Origin: Escherichia coli
Lineage (GTDB): Bacteria; Pseudomonadota; Gammaproteobacteria; Enterobacterales; Enterobacteriaceae
Reading direction: 5' to 3' (one strand)
Assembly: GCF_001677475.2 (NCBI RefSeq)
Contig: NZ_CP012497.1
Length of the DNA stretch: 64,000 nucleotides
The notes under the pieces were generated by a model, which was not told the origin of the DNA, did not search any database, and worked only from the letters and a program-made list of their open reading frames with translations. A program made the translations under genes and the position numbers. This document shows, in pieces, positions 2,268 through 23,085 of this stretch (positions are counted from its first letter, which is position 1; every line of letters begins with the position of its first letter).

Positions 2268-2277
2268 GGTCGTTGAT

Positions 2278-2889: not shown

Positions 2890-2903
2890 ATTAAGGAGCA
2901 AGG

Positions 2904-3785: not shown

Positions 3786-3866
3786 AAGGCTCACTGAATC
3801 CTATGCGTTTTTCCTGTTGGAGAAACTGGAAGAAAAACTTAAACCGAAACGGTAGGCGATAAGATC

Positions 3867-6800
3867 ATGGAAAGAAAAAACGCCAACATTGACGATGTTA
3901 TAAGGACAGTTGAAACCGCCAGCGCAAAAGAGCTGGAAGAGCTTGCTGGTATCCGGGAAGCTGTTGAAGATTTGAAAGGTGGGCGAGTTGCTACTGTTGA
4001 TCCTGTCTCTCGCAGCGTGTCGGCATTAAATCGCACAATCGAAAATTCCCGGCCTGACTTTGTGGCCAAAGCGCCATCAGTAGACCCTATTGTTGACGCA
4101 ATGAAACGGCTTAATTTAGGGGACGTTTCTCGTGTAGTTCAGGAAGATGTTGCTCAACAGGAACAGCGGGCCAAATCAACCACACCAAAGGGTAAAAAAC
4201 GACGCAGGAAGGCTATACCAGAGGATGTAAAGGCGCAACGGACCGAAGCAGCCGAACACGCTCGCGAAATGTTCGGTCAAAAAGGCGGTGCGCAAAAAAG
4301 CCAAAACCAACGCGATGCGCGTGGTCGTTTTATTGGAAAGTCAGGGAGTAAGGCCGCAGCGGAAGATGCCCATGCTGAACGAGCAGAAAAGGCCAGGCGA
4401 AAAGAGGATGATGAGCGTCTAAATGCTGAATCAGGTTTATTAAAAAAACTGTCAAAAGTAGCTGAAGGCATAGGTAACCCTTCAGAGACTCGTGCCGTCG
4501 ATGCGTTAGGTTATGCCGTTGCTGGTCCATTGTGGGCCGCAGGGAAGGAGCTTGGCGGGATATCAAAAGAAGTTGGCGGATCGCTTAATGGTGCCAGAAA
4601 GTCTATTGCCGATGTGATTCGTGGCAATGACGATAACAGCCGTAAAAAAGGTTTTTTTAGGCGTAAATCGCAAAGTAGTGCCGATGTCGTTCAGGTTAAC
4701 ACCCAAAAACGGACGGTTCAGGAACTTCAGGATCAGACCAGCGAAATTAAAGAGGGCAATGACAAGATTCTCAGCGCCCTTGATCAGATAGCCAAAAACA
4801 CCGGGAAAAAGAAGGGCGGCTTGCTGTCCAAATTATTTAGCCTGTTAGGGAAGGGGGCCGGTGGTATTGCTTCCCTCATTTTTGGCCGTGGGGCACTAAA
4901 GAAAGTTGGCTCGATGGCACTAGGCGCTTTAGGTATAAAAAAAGTTGCAAGCTTATTGGGCTTTGGTGGGAAAAAAGCTGCTGCCAAAGAAGCTGGCGAA
5001 TTGGCTACTCGCGGTGCCGGAAAACTTGCAACTAAGGGATTGGGGAAACTAGGTGTTAAGGCACTTGCAAAGGGGGTTTTACGCGCAATTCCGCTAGTCG
5101 GCACGGTGGCTGGAGGTATCTATGATGCGGTAACCGGTTGGAATGATACAGAAGCACAACGTCGGACCTTTGGGCTTAAGGATGGGGAAGATCCATCTTT
5201 TCAGCAAAAAGCGGCTTATACACTGGCTAACGTTCTCGATATGGGAGGACTGGTATCTGGTATTAGCAGTGCCATTGGTGGCGTTCTCAAATCACTTGGA
5301 TTTGAGGATATCGGCAATATGTTGCAATCATTTTCGACGGAAAGTATTGCACAGGCCATTGATAGTGGGATTACCAATTTAGAAACATACATTTCTAACC
5401 TTGGTGACACCATATCCACAACATTCAACGATTACACAGCCAAGATTGGCGATGCTATTTCAGCTTGGTTCAGTGACACAACCAAGAGTCTGAACGAAAA
5501 ATTAGACGCCATCAAAGACTTCTTTACTGTCGATAACCTGAAAAAGGTTTTCAGTGATGCAATTGATAGTGCAATTGATTTCATTAAGAACCCGGGGAAA
5601 TACATTAAAGAGGCTGGCAGTAATCTATGGAGTGCCGCAAAAGAGCTTTCAGGTGAGGTTGCTGATGCCGCTGTTCAGAGCACCCCTGTGGCCTGGGTTG
5701 CATCAAAGCTAGTCAATAAAGCGGATGCGAAAGAGGTTACACCTGAATTAAAAACACCTGCTAAAGAACGTCAGGAGGGCAATGCTCCTAAGACTGAATA
5801 TACCCCTAAAAAGGCTAATATTGTCACTCGTGTTGTAAATGCATCCTTAGATACGGCGAAAGATAGCAATAAAACAGTTAAAGAAACTGCTAATCAGATT
5901 ATCAATGCAAATGCCGTAGAAACGGGCAATCGCGCGTTGCAGAAAATTGATAAAGCCATTGGTCAAAATAGCTCGTCATCATCGTCGCGTAATACTACTG
6001 GAACCAGGAATGATATTCAGAAAGCTGCGGATACCTACAACAATGGCAACTTGGATGTAAAAGTAGGAAGTCTTGGCGCTGAAGGTAAGGCAAATCTCGA
6101 TAAGTTGGCTCCATATTTTGCTGAACTAGAGAATAAATATGGTCTTCCAGAAGGCACTCTTTACGCGATTGCTGCAACTGAATCAGGAGGGGATCCTAAC
6201 GCAAAGTCTCCGCTTACAAGATCACCAGATGGAAAGTTAAGTGGTGGCGCACTCGGGATGTTCCAGTTCACGAGTATTGCTCGTAAAGAGACAGGGATAT
6301 CGGAACCGGATGCATTTGATCCTGTGAAATCGGCAGAAGCTGCGGCTCTTCTCATGAGCAAGTATCTGAAGCAAGCCAATGGAGACTTAAACGAGGCCAT
6401 CACTGCATATAACGCTGGGTTTGGCACTATCAATAAGTGGAAAAAAGGCACAGGTGACTTATCGAAAGAAAACCGTGAGTACGCGATCAAGGTCAATACT
6501 CATCGTGCTCGCTATTTGGGTGGTGAAATCTATACACCTGGAGCAGGAGCACAGGGTGGGGCGCAATATGGAGTGAGGGGACCACTGCCTGATAACGCTG
6601 TTATCGATCAGTCTACTGGCCTGGCGTTTACCCCTGGTGATAGCCCGTTTGAGAAAGGCGGTCTGGTAGACAAAATCGGCAATGCTGTTGGCGTTAACGA
6701 TCTGGTCAACAAATTCATGAATGGCCGGGGGATGCGTCGGGAAGTCGTTCAGGGAACCCTCGAAGAACGTGCACGAGGAAGGGGAACCGCAACGGCAGCT

Positions 6801-7295
6801 GGCAATGTGTATGTTGATACACCTATGCCAGTTGAAGAGGCACGTCCGGTAGCAAACAACTCAAGTTACTTTGACCAACTCGGTGCACAAATGGGGATTG
6901 ATGGGCTGTATGACAAACTCATTAATGCCCGGGGAATGCGCTCAAATAATTCTCCTCAACCAGCCTCCACGTCCCAGGTGACGACTGCCGCCAACGATTT
7001 GCAGCAACCAACCGGTCGTATGCAGATAGACGGGCAGGTTATTAGTGACCTTGGCGGTTCCGGTGCTAAGCCGACAATGCAGTTGGCTGATAATACCGTT
7101 TCACTTGATGGTGAAACGAAGCGGCTGTTTGCGCAGATGACCTCATTGCTTGCCAGGATTGAAGAGCACACCAAAGACTCGGCGAAAGGCCAGGGAACTG
7201 TCGTAAAGGTCAGCACGCCTCAACCGGGCGTTATGCGCACGGTGCCACTGTCAATTGATGATCCGTTGATGAATGACTACGCGAGAGTTGATTGA
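3867..7295 (+). CDS. sit: Sit: tape-measure-like internal tail protein with lytic transglycosylase domain
   Basis: 1142 aa; Gly/Ala/Lys-rich repeats; SLT motifs LYAIAATESGGDPNAKS...GALGMFQF...AYNAGFG. Confidence 0.8.
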   Translation: MERKNANIDDVIRTVETASAKELEELAGIREAVEDLKGGRVATVDPVSRSVSALNRTIENSRPDFVAKAPSVDPIVDAMKRLNLGDVSRVVQEDVAQQEQRAKSTTPKGKKRRRKAIPEDVKAQRTEAAEHAREMFGQKGGAQKSQNQRDARGRFIGKSGSKAAAEDAHAERAEKARRKEDDERLNAESGLLKKLSKVAEGIGNPSETRAVDALGYAVAGPLWAAGKELGGISKEVGGSLNGARKSIADVIRGNDDNSRKKGFFRRKSQSSADVVQVNTQKRTVQELQDQTSEIKEGNDKILSALDQIAKNTGKKKGGLLSKLFSLLGKGAGGIASLIFGRGALKKVGSMALGALGIKKVASLLGFGGKKAAAKEAGELATRGAGKLATKGLGKLGVKALAKGVLRAIPLVGTVAGGIYDAVTGWNDTEAQRRTFGLKDGEDPSFQQKAAYTLANVLDMGGLVSGISSAIGGVLKSLGFEDIGNMLQSFSTESIAQAIDSGITNLETYISNLGDTISTTFNDYTAKIGDAISAWFSDTTKSLNEKLDAIKDFFTVDNLKKVFSDAIDSAIDFIKNPGKYIKEAGSNLWSAAKELSGEVADAAVQSTPVAWVASKLVNKADAKEVTPELKTPAKERQEGNAPKTEYTPKKANIVTRVVNASLDTAKDSNKTVKETANQIINANAVETGNRALQKIDKAIGQNSSSSSSRNTTGTRNDIQKAADTYNNGNLDVKVGSLGAEGKANLDKLAPYFAELENKYGLPEGTLYAIAATESGGDPNAKSPLTRSPDGKLSGGALGMFQFTSIARKETGISEPDAFDPVKSAEAAALLMSKYLKQANGDLNEAITAYNAGFGTINKWKKGTGDLSKENREYAIKVNTHRARYLGGEIYTPGAGAQGGAQYGVRGPLPDNAVIDQSTGLAFTPGDSPFEKGGLVDKIGNAVGVNDLVNKFMNGRGMRREVVQGTLEERARGRGTATAAGNVYVDTPMPVEEARPVANNSSYFDQLGAQMGIDGLYDKLINARGMRSNNSPQPASTSQVTTAANDLQQPTGRMQIDGQVISDLGGSGAKPTMQLADNTVSLDGETKRLFAQMTSLLARIEEHTKDSAKGQGTVVKVSTPQPGVMRTVPLSIDDPLMNDYARVD

Positions 7296-7651
7296 TGGCC
7301 AACAATAACGAAATTGATCCTTTACTGACGCTGGAGTTATCCGGCGTAAAAACGTATGAGTCCCAGGAGGAGGCCTGGGGCGCTCGTTTATATGAGTGGC
7401 TAAACACTTATCAGGGTGAGGTATACGGAGATCCGTCATGGGGCAATGTTTTACCGCAGTTTAAACACGAACCGACCAACTTGTCGTATGTTCAAATTGC
7501 GGTTGAGGCAATGCTTTTGCAAAAACTGACGGTAGATTTACCCGACATACCGATTTCTGGCTTGTCAGTAGCCGAGGGAGATGCTTTTGATAAGTTGAAA
7601 ATATCCATTCGTATCAGGGATATAACTATCACACAGGACGTGGTGCTATGA
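7292..7651 (+). CDS. Small baseplate-associated protein (pmgA position)
   Basis: 119 aa, overlaps the sit stop by 4 bp (translational coupling). Confidence 0.4.
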   Translation: MMANNNEIDPLLTLELSGVKTYESQEEAWGARLYEWLNTYQGEVYGDPSWGNVLPQFKHEPTNLSYVQIAVEAMLLQKLTVDLPDIPISGLSVAEGDAFDKLKISIRIRDITITQDVVL

Positions 7652-9081
7652 GTAAAACAACACCGACTAAAGACAGTATTCGTGCAGAGTTTGAAGAGCT
7701 TGTCGAGAAAGATTCATTCTGGTCGAAGTTTGTCGGCTCTCAATTTGTCTCGATGCTGACATTGTTTATTACCCAGATTGTATACAGGTGTTTTCAATAT
7801 GCCGATGCTGCGCTGGCTGAAGGCTTTATATCGACTGCGACGCGGCGTTCCTCTATCCTGGCTGCGGCAGAAACGAACAGTTATGTTGGTACCAAGCCAA
7901 CACCGTCATCGGGGATGATTGAGATCACAGCCACAAGTGAAGATGCTCCAGCGGTAATCCCCAAAAACATGCCTTTAATATCTGACGACCAGTACCCTTA
8001 CATGACTATGGATGTATGCAGATTGGTTGACGGCACCGGTACGGTAGAAGTGGCACAGTTGGAAATCCAGGAGGTGACATATACCGTTACGGCAGCCAAA
8101 GAATTTCTGGAAGTCGTGTTATCAAAGGCTCTCACTGCTGTCTGCTATAAGCTGGAAGTATTCGTGACGACCGATGGTAAGACCACGCAGTGGTCTTCCA
8201 GCACTATGTTCCGGTTAGCCGGTAGTAAAAGCCAGGTCTACGTTGAGTTTTATAAACCATCCGAGCAGTTGGGGGTTCGATTCGGCGATGGGCTAATTGG
8301 GCAAATACCGCCAGAAGGCTCGACAATTACGCTTAAGGTATGGTGCACCAACGGCGATATAACCCTGGTTGCTGGCCAAAACCTGACGCCTGTCGATTCT
8401 GCGGCTAATTTAGCTAATTTGATTTCAGTTAAGACAACGACACCTATAACCGCAGGTACCGATGCTGAAACAACGGAGATCACACGTAACCGTGCACAAT
8501 ATTACCTTGCCTATGATGATCAGGTCGTATGGGGCGGGGACTATACGTATTTTCTGGTGCGTAACATCCCGGGACTGTCCTGGGTAAAGGCATGGGGCGA
8601 AGGCCAGCAAGAGAAATTAGATGGTGCTTATAATATTCGGAATATCAATAGGATATTTATTTCAGGATGGCATCCAAACAAAAGCCAGTCAGAGCTTGAA
8701 GAAATGATCCTGGCTGCCTTTAAGAAGGTGCCGAATGAGTTGAACAAGAAATTCTCGTATAAAGAGGTCAGAAAACTACCCTTTAAGATCACCATCACCG
8801 GGCGGATATCGGCAAGCCTGACCATTGAGAACGTGACCGATGAGCTGAAGTCGGCACTGGAAACAAAATTTGGGCGTGACTCAACTTTCTTTGATCCGAA
8901 CCGTGTCGGCAAGTACATCCTGATTAAGAAAAAAGACGTTTGGGCATTTATCGAAACGCTGGGTTATTTCCGCGACTTTTATCTGGAATTTGTCGAGTGG
9001 AATGAGTCCAACGGCTTTTACGATTTCGTTTATCTGGATACAGAAAACTCCACCTTTAATATTTCGTATGAGGAGGAGTGA
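7648..9081 (+). CDS. Baseplate protein (BplA-like)
   Basis: 477 aa, coupled to flanking genes; position matches P1 bplA. Confidence 0.5.
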   Translation: MSKTTPTKDSIRAEFEELVEKDSFWSKFVGSQFVSMLTLFITQIVYRCFQYADAALAEGFISTATRRSSILAAAETNSYVGTKPTPSSGMIEITATSEDAPAVIPKNMPLISDDQYPYMTMDVCRLVDGTGTVEVAQLEIQEVTYTVTAAKEFLEVVLSKALTAVCYKLEVFVTTDGKTTQWSSSTMFRLAGSKSQVYVEFYKPSEQLGVRFGDGLIGQIPPEGSTITLKVWCTNGDITLVAGQNLTPVDSAANLANLISVKTTTPITAGTDAETTEITRNRAQYYLAYDDQVVWGGDYTYFLVRNIPGLSWVKAWGEGQQEKLDGAYNIRNINRIFISGWHPNKSQSELEEMILAAFKKVPNELNKKFSYKEVRKLPFKITITGRISASLTIENVTDELKSALETKFGRDSTFFDPNRVGKYILIKKKDVWAFIETLGYFRDFYLEFVEWNESNGFYDFVYLDTENSTFNISYEEE

Positions 9082-9917
9082 TGCAGCGTTCCTGGTTTAA
9101 TAACCGGCTTACATCAGCTAAGCAAAAGTCATTGCTCTATAAATCATTGGCTGATTTGGTTCAGTTAATGATGGATACCTTTGTTGACCCATGGTTGGAG
9201 CGAATTACCAACCGGAAGTCTATTTTTTCCATGAGCAAGGAGGATCTGGAGACCAGGACAAATGAACTTGGCCAGTTCTTTACTATCAGAACGTCGAACT
9301 CATCTTCCGTTCCGATGTTGTTACAACAGCGTCTTGATGAGATTCACTTTAAGGGAACTGAACGCCCTATAAACCAGACAATTTACCGCGAATTTAACGG
9401 TATTTCTGTTTTATGGGATCCGATATATGCACCGGTGGACCTTGAGCGTCATCCCTATGGCACAGTTCTAATACCAGAAAGCACACTGGAGACTACCGGC
9501 GGCACATTCGGCGAGATGTTTCTGACTTCCAGAGGGATGATCAGTATTCCCATAAACGACCTGGCCCGGACAATGGGTATTACTGGCACGATAGATCAGT
9601 CAGCAATTACAGAAGAAATTCTCAGAAAGTTTAATCAGTTCGTAAAGCCTCTACTGCCACTGCATATAGTGTTTGATGGGCTTACGCTCTATTTGTCGGT
9701 TGTTGTAAATGAACAGGCCGACATGATCACCTTGAACGAGATTTCTGATACCGAAAAAGCATTCTGCTGGTTTGAAACTTCGGATACAACTTCGCTTACT
9801 GGAGTTACGTCGATTAGCGCCCCTATCACCGCAACGCCGGGTGGCACTATTGTGAAAGCGACACCTACGTTTGATCGCACACGCGCAGATGATTTGTTGC
9901 TGGATAGCGACGCCTGA
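9078..9917 (+). CDS. Baseplate / tail-fibre attachment protein (gene 16 position)
   Basis: 279 aa, 4-bp overlap with the upstream gene. Confidence 0.45.
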   Translation: MMQRSWFNNRLTSAKQKSLLYKSLADLVQLMMDTFVDPWLERITNRKSIFSMSKEDLETRTNELGQFFTIRTSNSSSVPMLLQQRLDEIHFKGTERPINQTIYREFNGISVLWDPIYAPVDLERHPYGTVLIPESTLETTGGTFGEMFLTSRGMISIPINDLARTMGITGTIDQSAITEEILRKFNQFVKPLLPLHIVFDGLTLYLSVVVNEQADMITLNEISDTEKAFCWFETSDTTSLTGVTSISAPITATPGGTIVKATPTFDRTRADDLLLDSDA

Positions 9918-9995
9918 CAATCACCCCGTCCGCAGGGCGGGGTGACAAGTTACTTCTCTTACAATGAGGCTTCACAACATTGATTAGGGAAAATC

Positions 9996-10430
9996 ATGTC
10001 TGACGTCTCAACAAACCTCTATAAGAGTCAGTTGTTGGACTATTACTATCAGCGGCGCGCTGAATCGTCCATTAACAAAGGCTCTCGATTTTTAATCAGC
10101 AAGGCCGTTTTCGGTACCAGTTCACTGGTTACTAAGAAAGGAGATGGCACTTATGAGATTGGAGAACTGCCAAAGGCTTTCGATCTGGCAGAACTGACCA
10201 GTCAATTTTGCACCATCAACCTCGTCCCAACCTACTCAGGCGGGATAATTACTGTCCGAATGGACCTTGATCAAAGCCAGTTGCAGGAAGGGAAAAACTA
10301 CCCATTCAACACTCTGGTTGTTCTGGATAACGAGAACAAGCCAATCGCCATTATTTGTGTCCAGGAAGACTCGCTGTATGTGGGCAAAACATATACCGCA
10401 GTTATGGCCATAAACACGACTACAGCATAA
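9996..10430 (+). CDS. Tail-fibre associated protein R-like
   Basis: 144 aa immediately upstream of the tail-fibre gene. Confidence 0.4.
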   Translation: MSDVSTNLYKSQLLDYYYQRRAESSINKGSRFLISKAVFGTSSLVTKKGDGTYEIGELPKAFDLAELTSQFCTINLVPTYSGGIITVRMDLDQSQLQEGKNYPFNTLVVLDNENKPIAIICVQEDSLYVGKTYTAVMAINTTTA

Positions 10431-10441
10431 GGATATGTTTG

Positions 10442-11908
10442 ATGAATGACGTTACAGTTGTCACATCGGTTACTTCCCCATCACCCGAGTCGTTGGCTCT
10501 GGTGGCTGATGTGCAATACCACGAACCATATCTGTCAGCCGCGCTAAACCGAAAATTCAGGGGGATTGTTGACCCGGGATTTTATGCCGGTTTCTTACCT
10601 AAGCCTGGCGGTGGGATGAACCTGTTAATCACCTCAGTGGATGGTGATAAAACCGCAGGCGCGGCGTCGGTGGATATTGGTGAATTCTACCAGGTAACTA
10701 TTCAGCACCGTAAGGATATTTCTCTTGCACTTAGTGCAGGCAAGAAATATGCAATTGTGCTGAAGGGAAGATACCTCCTTGGAGAGGATACCTATCAGGT
10801 TAATACCGCGTCACATATTCATGCGGCTGAATTTGTTGCCAGAACCTATACCGATTCATATCAGTTAGGAGATGGGGAGCTGCTTGTTTGTACGGTGAAT
10901 ATCCCTGCTGGCGTATCAGCCATTACCCAGGAGATGATTGATACATCCGAGCGTATTAACCGCACGATCGGCATTGATATTTCAGACTCTGTAACCAGTA
11001 GTAGAAGTGATGTTGCTGCAAGTTCGCTGGCAGTTAAAAAAGCCTACGATCTGGCAAAAAGCAAGTATACGGCGCAGGATGCAAGCACAACGCAAAAGGG
11101 ATTAGTTCAGCTCAGTAGCGAAACTAACAGCGACAGCGAAACAATGGCGGCGACCCCTAAAGCCGTTAAGTCTGTAAAGGATCTGGCTGATACCAAAGCG
11201 CCAATAGAAAGCCCGAGTCTGACAGGAACGCCAACCGCGCCGACGGCAGCGCAAGGTACAAACAGCACGCAGATCGCAAATACAGCCTTTGTTAAGGCAG
11301 CTATAACTGCACTTATCAACGGTGCGCCTGGCACACTGGATACGCTGAAAGAAATAGCGGCTGCGATCAATAACGACCCGAATTTCAGCACAACTATCAA
11401 CAATGCCCTGGCTCTCAAAGCGCCTTTGGCAAGCCCTGCATTAACGGGTGTCCCTACTGCGCCGACCGCCGCACAGGGCACAAATAATACGCAGATTGCT
11501 ACGACCGCTTATGTAAGAGCTGCCATATCCGCACTGGTTGGTTCATCACCAGAAGCTCTTGATACCCTGAATGAGCTTGCCGCAGCACTTGGCAATGACC
11601 CGAACTTTGCGACAACAATGACAAATGCGCTGGCAGGCAAACAGCCTCTGGATGCAACTTTAACCGCTCTCGCGGCCCTTGCGACTGGTGCAAACAAACT
11701 GCCTTATTTTACTGGTAAGGATACGGTAGCTCAGACTGATTTAACGTCAGTCGGTCGCGATATTCTGGCTAAAACAAGCACACTGGCCGTTATCCAATAC
11801 CTTGGTTTAAGAGAACTCGGTACCAGCGGTGAAAAGATCCCCCTGTTGAGTACGGCTAACACATGGAGTGCGCGCCAGACTTTCAACGGCGGGATCACCG
11901 GGCGCTGA
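10442..11908 (+). CDS. S: Tail fibre S, constant part plus start of inverted repeat; ends at an apparent frameshift
   Basis: Repeated fibre motifs (SPSLTGTPTAPTAAQGTNSTQIANTAFV / SPALTGVPTAPTAAQGTNNTQIATTAYV); in-frame stop at 11906-11908 is created by a 1-nt difference from the right-hand repeat copy. Confidence 0.75.
   Translation: MNDVTVVTSVTSPSPESLALVADVQYHEPYLSAALNRKFRGIVDPGFYAGFLPKPGGGMNLLITSVDGDKTAGAASVDIGEFYQVTIQHRKDISLALSAGKKYAIVLKGRYLLGEDTYQVNTASHIHAAEFVARTYTDSYQLGDGELLVCTVNIPAGVSAITQEMIDTSERINRTIGIDISDSVTSSRSDVAASSLAVKKAYDLAKSKYTAQDASTTQKGLVQLSSETNSDSETMAATPKAVKSVKDLADTKAPIESPSLTGTPTAPTAAQGTNSTQIANTAFVKAAITALINGAPGTLDTLKEIAAAINNDPNFSTTINNALALKAPLASPALTGVPTAPTAAQGTNNTQIATTAYVRAAISALVGSSPEALDTLNELAAALGNDPNFATTMTNALAGKQPLDATLTALAALATGANKLPYFTGKDTVAQTDLTSVGRDILAKTSTLAVIQYLGLRELGTSGEKIPLLSTANTWSARQTFNGGITGR
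11790..11815. other. cixL-like recombination site (TTATCCAATACC TT GGTTTAAGAGAA)
   Basis: 26-bp site resembling hix/gix/cix crossover sites, at the outer edge of the left inverted repeat. Confidence 0.6.
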
Positions 11909-12416
11909 CAGGGAACGCCGACACCGCGACGAAATTAAAAACAGCCATAAATATTAATGGCGTCAGGTTCGATGGTTCTACGACATTTCGATACCAACAA
12001 TTACGTCTAGAGGACGCGTTACTGCGCTTACCGGTACAACGCAAGGTGCTGCTACTGGATTGCAGATGTATGAGGCATACAACAATGGTTATCCGACGAC
12101 TTACGGGAATGTACTTCACCTGAAGGGAGCTGCATCAACTGGTGAAGGCGAGTTGCTCATTGGCTGGAGTGGCACAAATGGCGCTCATGCACCTGCTTTC
12201 ATTCGATCCAAAAGAGATAGCACTGCTGCGGCATGGTCCGAATGGGCACAGATCTATACGTCAAAAGACTCCGTTCCCGGCGTTAATGCCAAAGGGAATC
12301 AGGACACCTCTGGTAATGCGGCTACAGCGACCAAATTGCAGACAGCACGTACTATTAACGGTGTCTCGTTTGATGGTTCTAAAAACATTGAGCTAACGGC
12401 GGAAGATTTAAATCTT
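11816..12416. repeat. Left inverted repeat of C-segment (coding, imperfect)
   Basis: Reverse-complement match to 15485-16083; outer about 180 bp nearly identical, inner part diverged. Confidence 0.65.
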
Positions 12417-13025
12417 GAGCAAACCGTAGAATTAGCCGTAGGAGCATTACAGAAAAACCAGAACGGCGCGGATATTCCAGGAAAAGATACCTTCACCAAA
12501 AATATTGGTGCATGTCGCGCTTTTCACAGTGCTATTAGTACAGGGGCAGGTAACTGGACAACAGCACAATTGATTGAATGGCTGGATTCTCAAGGGGCAT
12601 TCAATCACCCATACTGGATGTGCAAATGTTCATGGTCATACGGCAATAATAAAATTATTACCGATACTGGCTGTGGAACTATTCATCTTGCAGGTTGCGT
12701 TATTGAGGTTATGGGTAATAAAGGTGCCATGACCATCCGTGTAACAACACCAAGCACTTCCAGCGGTGGCGGAACTACTAATGCACAATTTACTTATATA
12801 AACCACGGTGGAGATTATGCGCCAGGCTGGCGGCGTGACTACAACACGAAAAATCAGCAACCTGCATTTGCTTTAGGGCAAACAGGAAGCACTGTCGGAA
12901 ATGATAAAGCTGTTGGCTGGAACTGGAATAGCGGGGTCTATAACGCAATCATTGGTGGCGCATCGACATTAATCCTCCACTTCAATATGAATACGGGAGC
13001 TGCCCTGCTGTACAGTTCCGCGTGA
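12060..13025 (+). CDS. Tail-fibre variable part Sv (frame-shifted relative to the constant part)
   Basis: Encodes ...[25 protein letters not shown]...[52 protein letters not shown] then a unique C-terminus. Confidence 0.6.
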
Positions 13026-13360
13026 ATTACAGGAACGGTGGTATTTTTTATCGTTCAGCGCGTGATGGTTACGGATTCGAAGCTGACTGGTCAGAATTTT
13101 ACACCACAACACGCAAGCCATCAGCAGGAGATGTTGGTGCATATACGCAGGCAGAATGTAACTCAAGGTTTATTACAGGTATTCGCCTTGGCGGTCTGTC
13201 ATCTGTTCAGACATGGAATGGTCCCGGCTGGTCTGACAGGTCAGGTTATGTCGTTACGGGTTCAGTTAACGGAAACCGTGATGAATTAATTGATACAACT
13301 CAGGCAAGGCCAATTCAGTATTGCATTAATGGAACGTGGTATAACGCGGGGAGTATTTAA
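13022..13360 (+). CDS. Tail-fibre distal tip segment (separate frame; probably the frameshifted end of S)
   Basis: 112 aa ending ...[12 protein letters not shown]; homologous to the minus-strand 14454-14966 product ending ...[11 protein letters not shown]. Confidence 0.4.
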
Positions 13361-13362
13361 TT

Positions 13363-13896
13363 ATGATGCACTTAAAAAATATTACTGCTGGCAACCCTAA
13401 AACAAAAGAGCAATACCAGCTAACGAAACAATTTAACATCAAATGGCTTTATACAGAGGATGGGAAAAACTGGTATGAGGAACAAAAGAACTTTCAGCCT
13501 GATACGTTGAAAATGGTCTATGACCACAACAACGTTATTATTTGTATTGAAAAGGATGTTTCAGCAATTAATCCAGAAGGCGCAAGCGTCGTTGAGGTTC
13601 CTGATATTACAGCAAATCGCCGGGCTGATATTTCGGGTAAATGGATGTTCAAAGATGGCGTAGTGATAAAGCGAACTTATACCGAGGAGGAACAGAGGCA
13701 GCAGGCAGAGAATGAAAAGCAAAGCCTGTTGCAACTTGTCAGGGATAAAACCCAGCTATGGGACTCACAGCTACGGCTGGGCATCCTTTCCGACGAGAAT
13801 AAACAAAAATTAACCGAGTGGATGCTCTATGCGCAGAAAGTCGAATCTACAGACACCTCCAGCCTGCCAGTAACATTTCCCGAACAACCTGAATGA
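13363..13896 (+). CDS. U: Tail-fibre assembly chaperone U
   Basis: 177 aa, [20 protein letters not shown]...[16 protein letters not shown], Tfa/U family; paralogue of the inverted copy. Confidence 0.75.
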
Positions 13897-13924
13897 GACA
13901 AGGCCCGATAGCGGGCCTTAATTT

Positions 13925-14452
13925 TTATTCAGGCTTTTGTGGCCATTCAGGATTTGCCGTATCCACACGGCTGACCAGAACACTGTAGCGTTCCCATGCT
14001 TCCAGTCGTGTGCGTTCCTCGTCTGTTGCCATATTCAGCCTGACAGCGCGTTCCAGCGGCTGAATGACTGATTCAGCTTCGGAAAGCAATGCGGCCTTTT
14101 GTGATTCGGCTTGTTGTTGCTGTTCGTCTGCCGTATAAATCCGTTTAACTACAGCTCCATCCTTAAACATCCACTTTCCTGAATCATCAGCGCGGCGGTT
14201 GGCTGTTATATCGGGAACCTCAACGACGCTAAAACCTTCAGGGTTAAGCGTGGAGGCATCTTTAGTGATGGCGACAATAATATTATTTGCATCGTAAACA
14301 ATCTTTATTGTGTCTGGCTGAAAGTTTTTCACTTCCTCATACCAGTTTTTTCCGTCCTCAGAGTAAAGCCAGATAACTCCGTGTTTCTTTGTTAACTCAT
14401 ACTGTTCCAGTGTTTTAGCGTTACCCGCTTTTATGTTCTTTAAGTGCATCAT
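13925..14452 (-). CDS. Tail-fibre assembly chaperone U' (alternative orientation)
   Basis: 175 aa, [20 protein letters not shown]...; mirror arrangement to U. Confidence 0.75.
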
Positions 14453-14453
14453 A

Positions 14454-14966
14454 TTAAACGCTCGCTACATTATACCAGGTGCCATTTATATACTTTTGAA
14501 CGGGTCTGTAATAAACGCCAGCTATATTATCGGCAGAGTTGGACCCTGTATCCTGAACATTAATACCAGACAATACATGACCTGACGGGCACTGGAAATT
14601 CCATGTTTGCCAGTTGTTCACTCCATAATATTGCTGTGAACCAAGTCGAACATCTTTCACATATCTGGAATCAAAATTGCCATAGTTGCCGGGAATAACT
14701 TGCGCACCGCAAAGCCAGTTTCCGTTATTATCCATGTACGCCTGACCATCGGTGCCATTGGCTGTCCTTGAATTATTAATCATGTAAAAACCAAACTGGT
14801 AGTTACCAAGTCCACCGACAAAAAATTTGCGTTCTGCATGGTCTTGTCTTAACAAAGCCTGCGCAGAACTTGTTGATACTGCGTTTCTACCAAAAATGAC
14901 ATTCTGGTTTCGCATATCAATCCATGAGGTTGAGCCACTATTAATAGCAAACCTGTTTGCATACAC
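14454..14966 (-). CDS. Alternative tail-fibre distal tip segment
   Basis: 170 aa ending ...[12 protein letters not shown]; the frame stays open upstream to about 15040. Confidence 0.5.
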
Positions 14967-14980
14967 CCAGGCGTTAGTTG

Positions 14981-15790
14981 TTATATCTCCTGTAACATCC
15001 AGACCATGCCCATGCTTATCCGACCAGTTCTGAGATTAAGCGTAAAGGGGCGTAGTGGCCCTATATCACCATTTTCTCCCTCATTCTCTCGTGTAGGGAT
15101 GATATGCAGGCATTCTTCAGAGCGACGAAAAATAGCACCAAAAGATGAATTAAATATCCTCAGTGCATTGACTGTCGATATTTTTACTTCACTGCTGAAA
15201 AGGGCTTTAACAAGGACAGACAAAGCATCCCATTTAAGATTCATCAGGTCTTTTGTTGTGGTGCTCTGGCGGCTTCTCCATTTGAAATATTCATTTCCGT
15301 TGTCGCCTGTTTCAAACCACATGTATGAATCAGTATCGCTGTCGGCATCATTTTTAAATCCAATCTTTGCCCAGTCAGTATTTCGAATCCAGGCAAGGAT
15401 TGAGTCATTTTCAAAAGTAAGCCCGCCGGACAAGATATCGCCTGAACGCTGAACGGCATTATTTGCTTTATTAATGAATTCCTGTAGATTTAAATCTTCC
15501 GCCGTTAACTCAATGTTTTTAGAACCATCAAACGAGACACCGTTAATAGTACATGCTGTCTGCAATTTAGTCGCTGTAGCCGCATTACCAGAGGTGTCCT
15601 GATTCCCTTTGGCATTAACGCCGGGAACGGAATCTTTTGACGTATAGACCTGCGCCCATTCAGACCAGTTAGCAGAATCAGTATCCCGCCGCGAACGGAT
15701 ATGTACGGGCGCATGGTCACCACTCGTGCCACTCCAGCCAATGAATAACTCACCTTCGCCAGCAGCGGTGGCACCTTTAAGGTGAAGCAC
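14981..15790 (-). CDS. Alternative tail-fibre variable part Sv'
   Basis: Shares ...HLKGATAAGEGELFIGWSGT...[29 protein letters not shown] with Sv, then diverges; the C-terminal 60 aa look out of frame. Confidence 0.6.
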   Translation of the reverse strand: MLHLKGATAAGEGELFIGWSGTSGDHAPVHIRSRRDTDSANWSEWAQVYTSKDSVPGVNAKGNQDTSGNAATATKLQTACTINGVSFDGSKNIELTAEDLNLQEFINKANNAVQRSGDILSGGLTFENDSILAWIRNTDWAKIGFKNDADSDTDSYMWFETGDNGNEYFKWRSRQSTTTKDLMNLKWDALSVLVKALFSSEVKISTVNALRIFNSSFGAIFRRSEECLHIIPTRENEGENGDIGPLRPFTLNLRTGRISMGMVWMLQEI

Positions 15791-16083
15791 ATTGCCATAG
15801 GGGGAAGGGTAGCCATTGTTGTATGCCTCATACAGCTGAATCCCGGATGTCCCCTGTGCATTCGCCCCAGAGCCGTTACGCGACCACGCGATACCATAGT
15901 ATTGATATTAATGTCACCAGAACCATCGAACCTGACGCCATTAATGTTTCTGGCTGTTTTCAATTTCGTTGCGGTATCGGCGTTCCCTGTCAGCGCTCCG
16001 GTGATCCCGCCGTTGAAAGTCTGGCGCGCACTCCATGTGTTAGCCGTGCTCAACAGGGGGATCTTTTCACCGCTGGTACCGAG
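15485..16083. repeat. Right inverted repeat of C-segment
   Basis: Reverse-complement match to 11816-12416. Confidence 0.65.
15505..16053 (-). pseudogene. S segment encoded in the right inverted repeat, in a different frame from Sv'
   Basis: Begins [44 protein letters not shown], same as the end of the S constant region; after ...RVTALG the fibre reading ([20 protein letters not shown]) continues only in another frame. Confidence 0.4.
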
Positions 16084-16111
16084 TTCTCTTAAACCAAGGT
16101 TTAGGATTGAA
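16084..16111. other. cixR-like recombination site
   Basis: TTCTCTTAAACCAAGGTTTAGGATTGAA; its inner half is the reverse complement of the inner half of the left site. Confidence 0.55.
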
Positions 16112-16661
16112 ATGATGACGCAGGAAACTTTTTATAAAGCGTGGAAACAGCAACATCATAGATGATTGCAACCTGCTTACGGGGGATGCCATTCTCCAGC
16201 AATCGACGCATTTGCTGCCATGTTTCTTCTTGGTATTTAGGCCGACGGCCTCCTATTCGACCTTCTGCGCGAGCTGCATCAAGTCCAGCGCGTGTACGTT
16301 CAACGATAAGCTCGCGTTCCATTTCAGCCAGCGCCCCCATTACGTGAAAGAAAAAACGCCCCATTGGTGTACTGGTGTCGATAGAGTCAGTGAGACTCCG
16401 GAAATTAATTCCTCTGTCACGCAGCTCTTCCACCAGCACAACCAAGTGACGCATGCTGCGCCCAAGACGATCTAACTTCCATACGACCAGGGTGTCACCT
16501 CTGGAAAGCATACGCAAAACCTTTTTTAGCCCAGGGCGTTCAGTCTTTTTGCCGCTCGCCTTATCCTCAAAAATTAGCTCACATCCTGCGCTTTCAAGGG
16601 CATTTCGTTGCAAAGCAGTGTTTTGTTCATTTGTTGATACGCGTACATAGCCGATCAGCAT
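16101..16661 (-). CDS. cin: Cin/Pin/Gin-family serine DNA invertase
   Basis: 186 aa, MLIGYVRVSTNEQNTALQRNA...LVVWKLDRLGRSMRHLVVLVEELRDRGINFRSLTDSIDTSTPMGRFFFHVMGALAEMERELIVERT; near-identical over long stretches to Pin/Cin. Confidence 0.9.
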   Translation of the reverse strand: MLIGYVRVSTNEQNTALQRNALESAGCELIFEDKASGKKTERPGLKKVLRMLSRGDTLVVWKLDRLGRSMRHLVVLVEELRDRGINFRSLTDSIDTSTPMGRFFFHVMGALAEMERELIVERTRAGLDAARAEGRIGGRRPKYQEETWQQMRRLLENGIPRKQVAIIYDVAVSTLYKKFPASSFQS

Positions 16662-16782
16662 GATTTTTACTCTAATGCGTTGTTCTTATGAGTCTGCGAA
16701 TTTTAAAGAACAAAGCGTTATGCACAGAAATAACAATCTGAATAGGTTCCTGCTTGATTTTTGTTAGATCCGGGAGGAGCTT

Positions 16783-17067
16783 ATGCAGATTTTGATTTTT
16801 TTAATGTCCATTATTAGTGGAACCTATTTATTTCTTACTGGAGTTAGGCGTGGAGCTTATAAGCCATGTTTTTTACATTGGCTTGAAGCATGGCTGCTTG
16901 CCATAAAAGGTGGTTTTGTTGGTTTTTGTCTTGCAGAAGTTCAGTGGGGAAACTCATTTTTGAATGTGGTTGCTTTTTTGATATGTAGTTGGAATAGCCA
17001 TTTTGTATTAAGAATAACCAAAATATGGGTTTTTCACTTGATTTACGAATGTATTGGCAAATTATGA
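16783..17067 (+). CDS. Hypothetical small hydrophobic protein
   Basis: 94-aa ORF with hydrophobic segments in the AT-rich region between cin and lydA; coding status uncertain. Confidence 0.2.
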   Translation: MQILIFLMSIISGTYLFLTGVRRGAYKPCFLHWLEAWLLAIKGGFVGFCLAEVQWGNSFLNVVAFLICSWNSHFVLRITKIWVFHLIYECIGKL

Positions 17068-17127
17068 ACAACCAGATGAGAAGTTACTTTGCATACCATT
17101 ACCTCCTGACAACGTAGGAGGGAACTT

Positions 17128-17457
17128 GTGCTTGACACACAGGAATTAGCTCCAGTTGCTATTGCGCTCCTGCTTTCAGTAATTGGTGGGATAGGCACGT
17201 TCCTGATGGATGTCCGAGACGGTCGCCAGTCTGGCAATTTGTTGGGATTGGTTACGGAGATCTTTGTTGCAGTGACAGCTGGCGCGGTGGCGTACCTATT
17301 GGGGCAACACGAGGGCTGGGAGTTATCAATTACGTACTTAATGGTAACGATAGCCAGCAATAACGGTCATGAGGTGATTTCAGGGATGAAACGAGTGAAT
17401 ATCGATAGCATTCTGAATGTTCTTACAAGTTTGGTGAAAAAGGGAGGCGGGAAATGA
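17128..17457 (+). CDS. lydA: Holin LydA-like
   Basis: 109 aa with hydrophobic transmembrane segments; first gene of the operon after cin. Confidence 0.55.
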   Translation: MLDTQELAPVAIALLLSVIGGIGTFLMDVRDGRQSGNLLGLVTEIFVAVTAGAVAYLLGQHEGWELSITYLMVTIASNNGHEVISGMKRVNIDSILNVLTSLVKKGGGK

Positions 17458-17897
17458 TTGGCTGGGGTGTATGCGTTCTTGCGTTAGCCTTAGCCGATCG
17501 CTATTTGCTAAAACGCAAGGACATCACGCATTTAGAACTTGGTGATGTGGAAATTAAACCGGGTTTCATCCGGGTGCCGTTCAAATACCGGTCTAAATTC
17601 CCGTTTTTGCGCGGCGCAACGGTCAGATATTGGATCCGCGATGTTCAGAAGCCGACGACAGTGATTGAAGGCGAACAACGTTGTCTGACGTCAGCTGAAC
17701 AGGGCGAAAACAGTGAATGGTTGTACATACCCACTGAATATATGGGTAAAGGAGAGCGACTGTGGCATTTCAACGTCATGGTTACGCATGGCGACTCGTT
17801 CATTAACCCGTTGTATCGGATTTTCCCTGTTACTCAGCAAATCCGCAGAAGTTACGTAATAAATCTCGCACAGGATGTGTCAGATGACGAAAAATAA
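17454..17897 (+). CDS. lydB: LydB-like (antiholin position)
   Basis: 147 aa, N-terminal transmembrane segment, 4-bp overlap with lydA. Confidence 0.45.
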   Translation: MIGWGVCVLALALADRYLLKRKDITHLELGDVEIKPGFIRVPFKYRSKFPFLRGATVRYWIRDVQKPTTVIEGEQRCLTSAEQGENSEWLYIPTEYMGKGERLWHFNVMVTHGDSFINPLYRIFPVTQQIRRSYVINLAQDVSDDEK

Positions 17898-18486
17898 GTA
17901 TGCAACGGTCGATTTTGACCAGGTTAATGAAAAGGGGCTGAAATCCCTTATCGCGGCGATCAATAAAACCGGTGTTACGGTAATTGAGGTTGACTCCAGC
18001 AACCGCGCAACAACGAAAGATGGCGTTAAAGTTAAAACCGCAAAGCTGGTTCTTAACGACGGACAAATTCTTGCCATACAGGTAAACGATACTGGCGATA
18101 TATCGTCTGTGAAACTGAATGGAAAAGCTATTCCTAACGCTCAGTCGCCGGATATCAAGACGCTTGGTACCGTCATGGGACAGGCGGCCCGCAAAAACTC
18201 CGCAAAATTCCAGAAATCACTGATCGCCAAAGCGAAGCGTGTTGCCAATCCGGTAGACAAGAAACCGGCAGTTAAATCCAACTTTCAGCGCCTGCAAGAA
18301 GCAAAACAGCGGAATGCTCAGGTGGTTGCCGCTTATAAGTCCGCGCAGAATTCGGTGTCTTTCAATCAACAGCAGATCACTGATTTGCGGGCGAAGCTGG
18401 ATAAGGAGACGGGCCGACTCAATAACGAAAAGGCACGGAATGGCGAACTCAAACGTCGTCTTAAGCAACTGAAAGCAGGAAATTAA
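17875..18486 (+). CDS. hdf: Hdf-like (homologue of DarA fragment)
   Basis: 203 aa; shares the KNSAKFQ-containing segment with the next gene product; position matches P1 hdf. Confidence 0.5.
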   Translation: MCQMTKNKYATVDFDQVNEKGLKSLIAAINKTGVTVIEVDSSNRATTKDGVKVKTAKLVLNDGQILAIQVNDTGDISSVKLNGKAIPNAQSPDIKTLGTVMGQAARKNSAKFQKSLIAKAKRVANPVDKKPAVKSNFQRLQEAKQRNAQVVAAYKSAQNSVSFNQQQITDLRAKLDKETGRLNNEKARNGELKRRLKQLKAGN

Positions 18487-18487
18487 C

Positions 18488-20101
18488 ATGGAACAGTTAA
18501 ATATCAATAAAGGGGTGACGATCAAGCCTGGGCTTGACGTGCTTCCCCCGCCAGTGACTGATGATGAATATCGCGCATTAATGGCCGGTGAGGACCGCTA
18601 TCTGATGACGGAATCCAACACCCTGGAGGAAATCGAGGCTACGTTCTTCTATGACACGCCGATCCACTGGTGTGCTACGGATTTACTGGAGGCGATTAGT
18701 TCTACTCGTTTGCAGTTACACCGGACCATGCAGGCATTTGTCCGGGCATTGAACCAGAAGCTGAATGGTACCGGAATCTCTGCGGGGAGTGATAAAACGG
18801 GGGAGGTGGCCCAGAGCGGCGCGCGCGCGATCGGCGGTGCTGAAATTGGCCGGGCACGTAACGTTAACGGGCTGCCGGTCCTGCCAGCCATTATTCCGCT
18901 CAGTGATGGTCAGACTATCAGCATTCTGTTTCATAGCCCGACAGCGGAAAACCGGATCACCAATAGCGATACGCTGGTTGCTTTCCAGTTCTTACTGAAT
19001 AAAAAAGACGTTACTCACACCGTTGCTCCGATGAGTGGACGTGATATGACGCTGGCGCAGGTCACCATGAAACTTGCCAACCTTGCAGAGAAAAACTCGG
19101 CAAAATTCCAGCGTGCGCAGAAGAAGAAAAAAGCCCTGGTTGATGAAATAACCCAACTACAGGCTGACAGTGACCAGAAAGAGGATGCCATGAGCGACCT
19201 CGCGGATCAGGTGGCAGCGGTAGAAGGGCAGAAGGTAGATCTGGAGCAGAAAATTAACGCTGTTGCATCGGAAGCGGATTCTCTTTATGAAGAGAATGAG
19301 CGTTTGCAGACGGAGATTGATCAGCTCAATCGCACAGGTGGGCGCGATACCATTGATCCAGCGGGGATGACTGGTGGGCACTCGCGCGCGCTGACGGATC
19401 GCCTTGCCAGTATCAAAAATCGTATGCATATGAACGGGGAAGTGACGCTCAGTAATGGAGCATCAATGAAGCAATTCATTGAGGACGGCGAAGGGTATAT
19501 CCAGTTAACCGATTCGGATGGCAGCGTGTACATGATCAAGGCTAAATCCATACAGGGTGTGGACATGGCAGATGCGATCGGCAAGCTGTTTAAAGCCTAT
19601 AAAGCGGGTAATGTATCGGAATACCTGGTCCAACCAGAAGAACATAAACCGGAAAACGTCGAACCTGAACCAGCGGAGGATACCGGTAGCTCTTCGCCTG
19701 AACCAGAAGTCTCTGTAGGTGCATATCGATATGCCCTGCAAATGCGTCCGGCGGCCCCTGGCGCAATACCTGAAGGTAACAAAGCAATTCTGCCGCGCCC
19801 TGATGAAGGTGACCCGTATTATGAATATGCACGCTACGGCATTGCTACTTACGATACCCCGCTTTCTGATCAGCAAATGAGTGAGTACGACCTGAAGTTA
19901 TTGCCTCGCGAGGATTCTTTCGACTTCCTGGCGAAGACACTTACTAATGGTCCGTTTGGCAAATATGCACAAAAAGCTCTGGAGCTGGCCACCAGCTCAC
20001 CAGACGAGTTCCGCGTAATGCTGAAAACTCAGTTTCAAAAAACTTTCCCCAATATTGCGTTTCCGGGGGCGCTGGCACCGAGAAAATGGTGCAGAGCATG
20101 A
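18488..20101 (+). CDS. darA: DarA-like antirestriction protein
   Basis: 537 aa; segment LANLAEKNSAKFQRAQKKKKAL is paralogous to Hdf; coiled-coil region. Confidence 0.5.
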   Translation: MEQLNINKGVTIKPGLDVLPPPVTDDEYRALMAGEDRYLMTESNTLEEIEATFFYDTPIHWCATDLLEAISSTRLQLHRTMQAFVRALNQKLNGTGISAGSDKTGEVAQSGARAIGGAEIGRARNVNGLPVLPAIIPLSDGQTISILFHSPTAENRITNSDTLVAFQFLLNKKDVTHTVAPMSGRDMTLAQVTMKLANLAEKNSAKFQRAQKKKKALVDEITQLQADSDQKEDAMSDLADQVAAVEGQKVDLEQKINAVASEADSLYEENERLQTEIDQLNRTGGRDTIDPAGMTGGHSRALTDRLASIKNRMHMNGEVTLSNGASMKQFIEDGEGYIQLTDSDGSVYMIKAKSIQGVDMADAIGKLFKAYKAGNVSEYLVQPEEHKPENVEPEPAEDTGSSSPEPEVSVGAYRYALQMRPAAPGAIPEGNKAILPRPDEGDPYYEYARYGIATYDTPLSDQQMSEYDLKLLPREDSFDFLAKTLTNGPFGKYAQKALELATSSPDEFRVMLKTQFQKTFPNIAFPGALAPRKWCRA

Positions 20102-20406
20102 TCAATGCATTGCAGGCCGAAGTCGGTGAGATTACTCAGCCAGAACCTGCCCCGGCACAGCCTGATGAAACGGTTAGCGAAGCAGATGCAGAGGCTAATA
20201 AAGCCATTGAATATCTCAATAACGTGATGGATATGCAAAGCACTGACATGGCGGAGATCCGTAACGCCCGGGGTAATGTCCGGGAAGCGATTGCAGCCCT
20301 TCAGGCTGCCGGGCGTTTTGAGGAAAACGAAGAGCTGGTTAATGGCGCTGCTCGCCACCTGGCTGATCTGCTGGTAGCAATCCAGAAAGCGGGGGTAGCG
20401 GCATGA
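20086..20406 (+). CDS. Small acidic protein (ddrA region)
   Basis: 106 aa ORF overlapping the darA-like stop. Confidence 0.3.
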   Translation: MVQSMINALQAEVGEITQPEPAPAQPDETVSEADAEANKAIEYLNNVMDMQSTDMAEIRNARGNVREAIAALQAAGRFEENEELVNGAARHLADLLVAIQKAGVAA

Positions 20407-20768: not shown

Positions 20769-20780
20769 GGCGTAACAGGG

Positions 20781-22997: not shown

Positions 22998-23085
22998 GAC
23001 GACAATAACTCAGTCCGCCTGGCGCCGATTATTCTGGCCGGTTTTGTAACCTGAGTGTCATTTACATGATCCAACAGGAAATGGC

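Follow-up and report, generated by a model that had tools for sequence, protein, structure and literature searches.

The window analysed here is a stretch of 64,000 nucleotides of Escherichia coli DNA (contig NZ_CP012497.1), in which two oppositely oriented tail-fibre ends lie next to the gene of a DNA invertase. An earlier note had compared this region with the C-segment of phage P1 and had remarked that its two inverted repeats are not alike. The questions are therefore whether the window contains a working host-range switch and how its repeats came to differ.

Identification of a P1/P7-type C-segment

The features of the region are listed in Table 1. LPs, R and Sc lie outside the segment; inside it are Sv and U and the oppositely oriented Sv' and U', with one chaperone for each variable end. 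This order is collinear with the C-segments as annotated in P7 and P1. By tblastn, amino acids 1-487 of S match the S proteins of P1, P7 and relatives at 97-99% identity. The two cores are about 4295 bp apart, in line with the 4.3-kb segment carrying Sv/U and Sv'/U' between two sites that had been described before. The GC-rich hairpin at the centre of the segment is likely a terminator, as judged from a pattern match only.

Both cix sites have the 12+2+12 layout, with matching 2-bp cores (TT/AA) and in inverted orientation, the reverse complement of the right site reading CAATCCTAAACC-TT-GGTTTAAGAGAA. Their alignment to P1 cixL and cixR, which the earlier note had called for, showed complete identity (26/26) in both cases. 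The left site lies exactly where it had been placed, and so does the start of the right site (16084); the end given for the latter (16111) was 2 nt too far, a 26-bp site ending at 16109. By chance, 0.00 matches to the full cix pattern are expected in 64 kb, and with a looser cix-core pattern no further convincing site came to light anywhere in the window. With only two cix sites, the region differs from a Min-type shufflon as in p15B, which has more than two crossover sites.

Table 1. Coordinates of the C-segment and of its flanking features in the window
Feature	Position	Strand	Remarks
Late promoter LPs of the R-S-U fibre operon (predicted)	9947..9965	+	-22 box AAGTTACTT, -10 TACAAT as annotated in P1
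R, tail-fibre structure or assembly gene	9996..10430	+	144 aa, 100% identical to R of a relative
Sc, constant N-terminal part of S	10442..11802	+	Ends in left cix core; Pfam Phage_fiber_2
Left cix, Sc side (= cixR of P1)	11790..11815	.	TTATCCAATACC-TT-GGTTTAAGAGAA, core TT 11802-11803; 26/26 vs P1 cixR and vs P7
Left inverted-repeat arm	11792..12415	.	Encodes aa ~452-659 of S; P7-type central block 11980-12241
Sv, variable end expressed in the orientation shown	11803..13360	+	Interrupted by three single-base deletions
U, assembly chaperone for S fibre	13363..13896	+	177 aa, intact; Caudo_TAP E=1e-36; 98.9% vs U of a relative
Putative terminator hairpin between convergent U and U'	13900..13919	.	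8-bp stem, 6 GC pairs, then AATTTTTATT
U', assembly chaperone for alternative fibre	13925..14452	-	175 aa, intact; Caudo_TAP E=9e-38
Sv', alternative variable end, silent in the orientation shown	14454..16096	-	Interrupted by two single-base deletions
Right inverted-repeat arm	15486..16107	.	P1-type central block 15660-15918
Right cix, cin side (= cixL of P1)	16084..16109	.	TTCTCTTAAACC-AA-GGTTTAGGATTG, core AA 16096-16097; 26/26 vs P1 cixL
cin, serine DNA invertase	16101..16661	-	186 aa, intact; directly outside right cix site
sis recombinational enhancer (predicted)	16576..16643	.	Within 5' part of cin; 68/68 vs P7 annotated enhancer

The invertase gene lies directly outside the segment, as had been noticed previously. 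Cin is identical to P1 Cin at 184 of 186 positions and to P7 Cin at 185 of 186, and contains the Resolvase (E=4e-51, 173 bits) and HTH_7 (E=2e-18, 66 bits) domains of Pfam. A mutated catalytic serine would, according to the earlier note, have spoken against a working switch; Ser9 was found in place, in the N-terminal motif GYVRVST. The sis sequence is identical to the annotated P1 enhancer at 69 of 72 positions, and LPs shares its -22 box and -10 sequence with P1 LPs, with one mismatch in the spacer. From these similarities we infer that sis would act as a recombinational enhancer and LPs as a promoter, which, being outside the switch, would drive the fibre end that happens to be fused to Sc.

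We consider it highly probable that a plasmid prophage of the P1/P7 family has its C-segment host-range switch here. At the level of sequence, the assignment to the P1/P7 C-segment, and with it the previously proposed P1 architecture, is supported by the identical cix sites, the near-identical Cin and the presence of the sis enhancer. All the features that mark this switch family were observed, namely an adjacent invertase, two inverted cix sites, an enhancer in cis, a promoter and constant part outside the segment, two opposed variable ends with their chaperones inside it and, by comparison between assemblies, both orientations. The two-state fibre switch in the window is complete and probably functional. 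Transcription from LPs would run through R and Sc and enter the segment. Cin, aided by the enhancer within its own gene, would exchange strands at the 2-bp cores of the inverted 26-bp cix sites and thereby flip the 4.3 kb, so that Sc would continue into Sv, served by chaperone U, in one orientation and into Sv', served by U', in the other. Inversion by Cin requires the host protein Fis. The long inverted repeats are not needed for this recombination and simply represent the coding sequence with which both variable ends begin.

Origin of the unequal inverted repeats

The two arms (11792-12415 compared with 16107-15486) could be aligned over 628 columns, with 82.8% identity, 98 mismatches and 6 gap openings. 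The same method gave 98.3% without gaps for P1, 99.0% for pO165, 99.7% for plasmid p3 of strain EC02, and 87.6%/90.2% for P7, in which part of one arm is deleted. The arms therefore do differ at many positions, including indels, unlike those of P1, as had been pointed out. Three of the indels (at about 11900, 11983 and 15865) are however single-base deletions private to this record, and probably errors instead of evolved differences (see below). The 0.62-kb inverted repeats of the strict P1 type are 98-99% alike. Near-identical arms do not define the switch family, because P7 itself is without them, and a C-segment with unequal arms is already known as the common P7-type variant, present in P7 and many P1-like plasmids.

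The differences between the arms are unevenly distributed, with about 190 nt at 95.2% identity, about 260 nt at 66.9% and about 175 nt at 96.6%. The central block of the left arm was 99.2% identical to P7, 98.8% to RCS47 and 91% to D6, while it matched P1 at only 77%, over half of its length. As assessed from these alignments, this odd block is an Sv allele of the P7/RCS47 type. It is the combination of a P7-type block in the Sv arm with a P1-type one in the Sv' arm that lowers the arm identity from 98-99% to 83%. The P7-type block was found at 64 places in 61 plasmids, nearly always in one arm only, and the P1-type block at 237 places in 160 plasmids. Mixed arms were also present in pRHB23-C01_3 (83.6%), P7 and p2RM9154-C1.

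The earlier note had concluded that the repeats are not being homogenised, which implied that they drifted gradually in place once gene conversion between them had stopped. The first part is fair for the central 260-nt block, since its P7-type version is nearly always restricted to one arm; the divergence itself corresponds to block replacement and not to diffuse drift. The overall identity of 82.8% and the several indels are what gradual drift would leave behind, but the divergence is confined to a single 260-nt block (67%) between flanks at 95-97%, and this block is 99% identical to the P7/RCS47 Sv allele (91% to D6), which indicates allele replacement by recombination. Furthermore, the whole segment is 100% identical in another public contig (L020) on a backbone that is 2-3% different, indicating that the segment moves as a cassette. 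Gradual drift is for these reasons very unlikely. On the sequence comparisons, the arm divergence is best described as block replacement by a different Sv allele, a known recurrent state that is also seen in P7, RCS47 and pRHB23-C01_3.

Occurrence of both orientations

Contig L020 contains positions 11792-16107 of the window on the opposite strand at 99.79% identity, the only mismatches being at 11796, 11798, 16101 and 16103, i.e. in the outer half-sites; the flanks of the flipped segment are 97-98% identical to the window. Contig L005 and about one third of the top E. coli matches break at query positions 93 and 4408, corresponding to 11792 and 16107 in the window. Among the sibling contigs, it is GCA_051060675.1 in which the segment has the opposite orientation. 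As judged by alignment, the same allele thus occurs both ways round in public assemblies, the breakpoints coinciding with the cix cores.

We considered the idea that the segment is a frozen relic, in which sites and gene have been kept and inversion has been lost in this lineage. It accommodates the single orientation of the assembled sequence, which two siblings (L010 and L011) share, but every known component in cis or in trans is identical or near-identical to that of the functional P1 and P7 systems, and L020 carries the exact segment flipped precisely at the cix cores, which means that this allele does invert in nature. We regard a frozen relic as very unlikely, and inversion is inferred to be active in this particular host as well. 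The ends of short-read sibling contigs (11797-11850) were discounted as a sign of mixed orientation, since a 51-nt stretch identical in both arms would break k=31 graphs in any case.

Single-base deletions in Sv, Sv' and darA

Both Sv and Sv' are frameshifted in the sequence as written, through five single-base deletions that the earlier note had overlooked. Those in Sv are at about 11900, 11983 and 12995, and those in Sv' at about 15009-15012 and 15865-15869. With tblastn, the reading frame of S jumped through +2, +1, +3 and +2, and that of Sv' through -2, -1 and -3, at 99-99.7% amino acid identity to intact relatives. S consequently stops at amino acid 488 (stop codon at 11906-11908), and the S' obtained after inversion at amino acid 650. 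Restoring the five bases yielded an intact S of 973 aa and, after inversion, an S' of 1001 aa. These are the lengths called in siblings, and an S' of 1001 aa is also the product called in L020. A sixth single-base deletion, at 20065, was found in darA.

Siblings were retrieved by exact look-up of the intact sit product and of the repaired darA and darB products. Three of them (L010, L011 and L024) showed, over window positions 1-22988, no mismatch and exactly six single-base gaps. An exact 32-mer spanning the first deletion site (about 11900) was absent from the viral and genome contigs searched, and neither the truncated S (488 aa) nor the truncated DarA (537 aa) had an exact match among 153 billion gene positions. 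Because siblings without a single substitution over 23 kb lack all six deletions, these are most probably consensus errors private to this record rather than biology.

The deletions could instead be real, in which case an intact Cin/cix switch would flip dead cargo, both fibre ends being inactive, and the phage would be non-infective. This would take the stops at amino acids 488 and 650 at face value and would agree with the clustering of the deletions in the segment, with the ISEc10 insertion in the ddrB homologue of the same plasmid, and with the degenerate C-segments reported in other P1-like plasmids (PMC6906374). Natural mutation would not, however, produce six indels and no substitution over the 23 kb shared with deletion-free siblings; in-frame stops are lacking, the fragments all match intact relatives at 99-100% amino acid identity, and neither truncated product is on record in the gene collection. 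Real frameshifts are accordingly very unlikely, and natural decay of the fibre genes was rejected on account of the absence of substitutions relative to siblings and of any excess of private substitutions inside the segment. Genome-wide sequencing error was also rejected: only 2 of 431 A/T runs were changed, both of them lying outside annotated genes, in a stretch of higher divergence, and 25 kb elsewhere in the window (25375-50298) showed no single-base gap relative to the siblings.

Five of the six deletions fall within the 4.3 kb of the segment (binomial P about 5e-5), a clustering not predicted by uniform sequencing error. Short-read sibling contigs end at the left cix site and at the ISEc10 junction, and the six deletions are all located between these two points. 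An assembly-pipeline cause is the only reason that we can offer for the clustering. It is possible that the culture was mixed for orientation and that the reads corrupted the consensus, which would be an indirect sign that the switch is active. A more daring suggestion is that G/C runs slip more often inside the segment than elsewhere. Separately, the stably unequal central block might be favoured by selection for preventing RecA-driven inversion or conversion between the arms, which would free the two fibre ends to evolve independently. These readings, in which the cluster is a real property of the DNA and not an accident of assembly, appear very improbable.

As to the surroundings, the ISEc10/ddrB junction was not found in plasmids, viral contigs or E. 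coli genomes (no match covering at least 80%). At its start the window contains an element that resembles Mu in gene content only, and a search for the canonical Mu left-end sequence gave no match.

Comparison with other invertible fibre segments

P7 (AF503408) and RCS47, about 95% identical over the region, share with the window the order R, Sc, cix, Sv, U, U', Sv', cix, cin, the Sc-side cix, the enhancer, Cin (185/186) and the P7-type Sv allele, whose central block is the source of the arm inequality. In P7, about 280 nt of the Sv' arm are missing, which leaves a segment of 3998 bp, and the U annotation is divided into Ua and Ub; in the window the Sv' arm is of the P1 type and full-length, and U is an intact protein of 177 aa. 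P1 (AF234172) has the same cixL and cixR, a similar Cin and enhancer, a conserved LPs and the P1-type Sv' arm block, but its Sv and U are unlike those of the window, and megablast covered only 54% of the region.

The combination of a P7-type Sv arm with a P1-type Sv' arm was also present in the E. fergusonii plasmid pRHB23-C01_3 (NZ_CP057567) and in the sibling contigs, with an arm identity of 83.3-83.6%. Contigs GCA_033692955.1, GCA_043014985.2 and GCA_051060675.1 agree base for base with the window apart from its private deletions. S and S' are intact in pRHB23-C01_3 and the sibling contigs, and the cin locus of pRHB23-C01_3 is rearranged. More distantly, the Mu G-segment with Gin, Salmonella Hin, e14 Pin and p15B Min belong to the same class of enhancer-dependent serine invertases with 26-bp sites, but have other flanking genomes, and p15B has six crossover sites instead of two. 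The inner part of the segment is matched at about 89-90% identity by the fibre genes of Mu, D108 and SfMu.

Significance

As a textbook Cin/cix host-range switch, the region has little value for discovery. It is of use for annotation, the apparent pseudogenes S, S' and darA being weak grounds for calling the prophage defective before the reads have been checked. The identical segment on a backbone that has diverged by 2-3% provides an example of the exchange of fibre cassettes among phage-plasmids.

Identity and layout of the locus

A query of the 7.5 kb around the C-segment, the 4.3-kb Cin-invertible tail-fibre switch, matched P7 and RCS47 with 94% coverage and about 95% identity, and P1 with 54% coverage at 94% identity. 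Hundreds of Escherichia and Salmonella plasmids were also hit, those examined being typed IncY. In the P7 and P1 annotation, LPs is followed by R, S (constant part Sc plus variable end Sv) and U, then by the alternative U' and Sv' on the opposite strand and by cin, the segment being limited by cixR within S and cixL at the end of cin. The window follows the same gene order.

The left cix site had been located and quoted correctly in the earlier note; the right one is present as well, but its end had been set at 16111, 2 nt too far. In the same sense, the sites read TTATCCAATACC-TT-GGTTTAAGAGAA and CAATCCTAAACC-TT-GGTTTAAGAGAA; aligned with P1 cixR and cixL, they showed 26/26 identity each. Their core-to-core distance is about 4295 bp. 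No further convincing cix site was found in the 64 kb, which makes the locus a two-state switch and rules out a Min-type shufflon. The Cin protein is identical to P1 Cin at 184/186 residues and to P7 Cin at 185/186. A mutated catalytic serine had been proposed as an argument against the switch, yet the N-terminal serine is kept (motif GYVRVST).

The locus has every defining feature of the P1/P7 Cin-cix switch; it lacks only near-identical arms (the 0.62-kb inverted repeats), a P1-specific trait that is missing in P7 too. The system is thus already known, and in a known allelic configuration. Functional background comes from host-range work on P1 S and S' (bioRxiv 10.1101/2022.07.24.501295), and a survey of P1-like plasmids named the C-segment a hot-spot of variation (PMC6906374).

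Features of the window
Feature	Coordinates	Strand	Description
ner-like ORF	774-1025	-	HTH_35; in Mu-like prophage
171-aa ORF	1217-1732	+	in Mu-like prophage
sit	3867-7295	+	tape-measure/transglycosylase
LPs late promoter	9947-9965		-22 and -10 boxes as in P1
Left cix site	11790-11815
Deletion	about 11900		G4 to G3
Deletion	11983		GAAC to GAC
Deletion	12995		G4 to G3
U and U'			intact Caudo_TAP chaperones
GC-rich hairpin, then T-run	13900-13919		between U and U'
Deletion	15009		C4 to C3
Deletion	15865		C5 to C4
Right cix site	16084-16109
cin	16101-16661	-	186 aa; Resolvase and HTH_7 domains
Enhancer	16576-16643		inside cin; 68/68 with P7 annotated enhancer, 69/72 with P1 enhancer
Sixth deletion	20065		G6 to G5; darA split into 537-aa and about 122-aa pieces
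ISEc10 (IS21 family)	22993-25402		splits 995-aa ddrB homologue
istA	23086-24585		in ISEc10
istB	24582-25337		in ISEc10
Tad2-like ORF	28390-29118	-	Thoeris anti-defence 2 domain; adjoins ssb
1084-aa autotransporter	41605-44859	-	AC_1 and Autotransporter beta domains; cargo amid P1 backbone genes

Other elements in the window

The left edge (1-1980) falls inside a Mu-like transposable prophage, which terminates with GGTCA at about 1979-1980 within a P1 backbone gene; residues 94-188 of this gene resume at 1980. In sibling contigs (from assemblies near-identical to the window), the leftward continuation encodes MuA, MuB, Gam and GemA homologues. No Pfam family was found for the 171-aa ORF, a putative repressor from its position only. 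A Gin/G-segment is normally part of Mu-like elements, and cross-action between it and Cin would be possible; this part would fall outside the window.

At the ISEc10 insertion point, 6 nt of a relative can be aligned to either flank, as a 6-bp target duplication would predict. In the searched collections, the ISEc10/ddrB junction had no counterpart among plasmids or E. coli genomes. One sibling (L026) is without ISEc10, and the contig of another (L024) stops at it. The Tad2-like ORF is called as 217 aa in siblings. The autotransporter is found in siblings and missing from the relative L007. Compared with L007, a relative otherwise 97-99% identical, the sit allele has only 76.8% identity and thus marks another mosaic spot.

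Divergence of the inverted-repeat arms

The arms (11792-12415 and 16107-15486) are 82.8% identical; their alignment has 98 mismatches and opens 6 gaps. The same computation gave 98.3% without gaps for P1, in agreement with the near-identity given in the earlier note, 99.0% for pO165, 99.7% for EC02 plasmid p3 and 97.8% for NZ_CP027309, so that the divergence remarked on there is indeed unusual. The P7 arms matched in two pieces only (87.6% and 90.2%), owing to a partial deletion of the Sv' arm.

The divergence is block-wise rather than diffuse: identity is 95.2% in the outer 188 nt, 66.9% in the central 262/259 nt (29 gap columns) and 96.6% in the inner 174 nt. In the left arm, the central block shows 99.2% identity with P7, 98.8% with RCS47 and 91% with D6, versus only 77% with P1, across half its length; that of the right arm is of the P1 type. 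The P7-type block occurred at 64 places in 61 PLSDB plasmid records, thus almost always in one arm only, and the P1-type block at 237 places in 160 records, indicating both arms in roughly half and one arm in the other half. With the fibre genes repaired (see below), S and S' show no difference in the first 502 residues, remain collinear across the diverged block (about residues 514-601) and are near-identical again to about residue 659. The unequal arms therefore reflect a combination of two different alleles, one in Sv and the other in Sv'. The same block combination is found in pRHB23-C01_3 from E. fergusonii (arms 83.6% identical, both fibre ORFs annotated intact); the mixed-arm state is thus recurrent and already sequenced elsewhere. 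Long arm homology is unnecessary, since recombination by Cin, Gin and Hin requires nothing beyond the enhancer, Fis and the 26-bp sites.

Each arm also carries two related copies of a fibre motif of about 29 residues (about 69% amino acid identity) on either side of the central block (11902-11980 and 12309-12395, mirrored in the right arm), which give rise to additional weak pairs of inverted repeats (I5 and I7).

Single-base deletions in the fibre genes and darA

As written, neither fibre is intact in the window, which the earlier note had overlooked. Intact S homologues align in four pieces (frames +2, +1, +3 and +2) and Sv' homologues in frames -2, -1 and -3, with 96-100% amino acid identity per piece; these jumps are due to five single-base deletions. 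S stops at 11906-11908, after 488 residues, and S' would end at 650 after inversion. Restoring the five bases gives an S of 973 and an S' of 1001 residues.

Sibling assemblies were located by exact-protein look-ups, the exact sit product being the key query. Two of them (L010 and L011) aligned with window 1-17290 with no mismatch and exactly five of the deletions as gaps, and L024 with 8493-22988 with no mismatch and exactly the six. Across 25375-50298, the window differs from other siblings by 0-7 substitutions and lacks no single base. All six deletions are private to the NZ_CP012497.1 record. In a comparison with eight relatives, private substitutions were not over-represented in the segment (12 in 4.3 kb versus 10 in 2.3 kb upstream), and the truncated products were absent from the gene-position index. 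Natural mutation was rejected, as the pattern (six single-base deletions, yet not one substitution, over 23 kb) does not fit it. From these comparisons, the six deletions are very probably consensus errors.

The six are strikingly clustered, five of them within the segment (P about 5e-5). Five are in G/C runs, and A/T runs are far less affected. The left cix repeat and the ISEc10 junction, both end points of short-read sibling contigs, enclose the whole set; this suggests a stretch filled from lower-accuracy reads.

Inversion of the segment in nature

In GCA_051060675.1, window 11792-16107 is found on the opposite strand with 99.79% identity, between flanks aligning in forward sense at 97-98%. 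The only four mismatches (11796, 11798, 16101 and 16103) are the outer half-sites retained by the flanks, and the expressed fibre product is the 1001-residue S'. The match was likewise limited to 11792-16107 (query 93-4408) in about one in three of the top-ranking E. coli plasmids and in NZ_CP027309. The breakpoints thus coincide with the cix sites, and both states exist for a segment whose arms are 83% identical. This provides good comparative evidence that this C-segment allele flips in nature.

Private deletions apart, the segment of GCA_051060675.1 (3300-7620) is base-for-base identical to that of the window on a backbone 2-3% diverged; the fibre cassette has therefore been swapped between P1-like plasmids since the flanks diverged. 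In pRHB23-C01_3 (NZ_CP057567), which shares the mixed-arm C-segment, the invertase locus is rearranged: the cin position (6657-7595) is taken up by a recombinase of 193 aa, encoded on the other strand, and a 74-aa recombinase fragment.

Readers of this record should be cautious with the fibre genes and darA, whose pseudogene appearance probably stems from sequence errors. The useful results are the corrected end of the right cix site, the explanation of the arm divergence by blocks and the support for inversion of this allele in nature.
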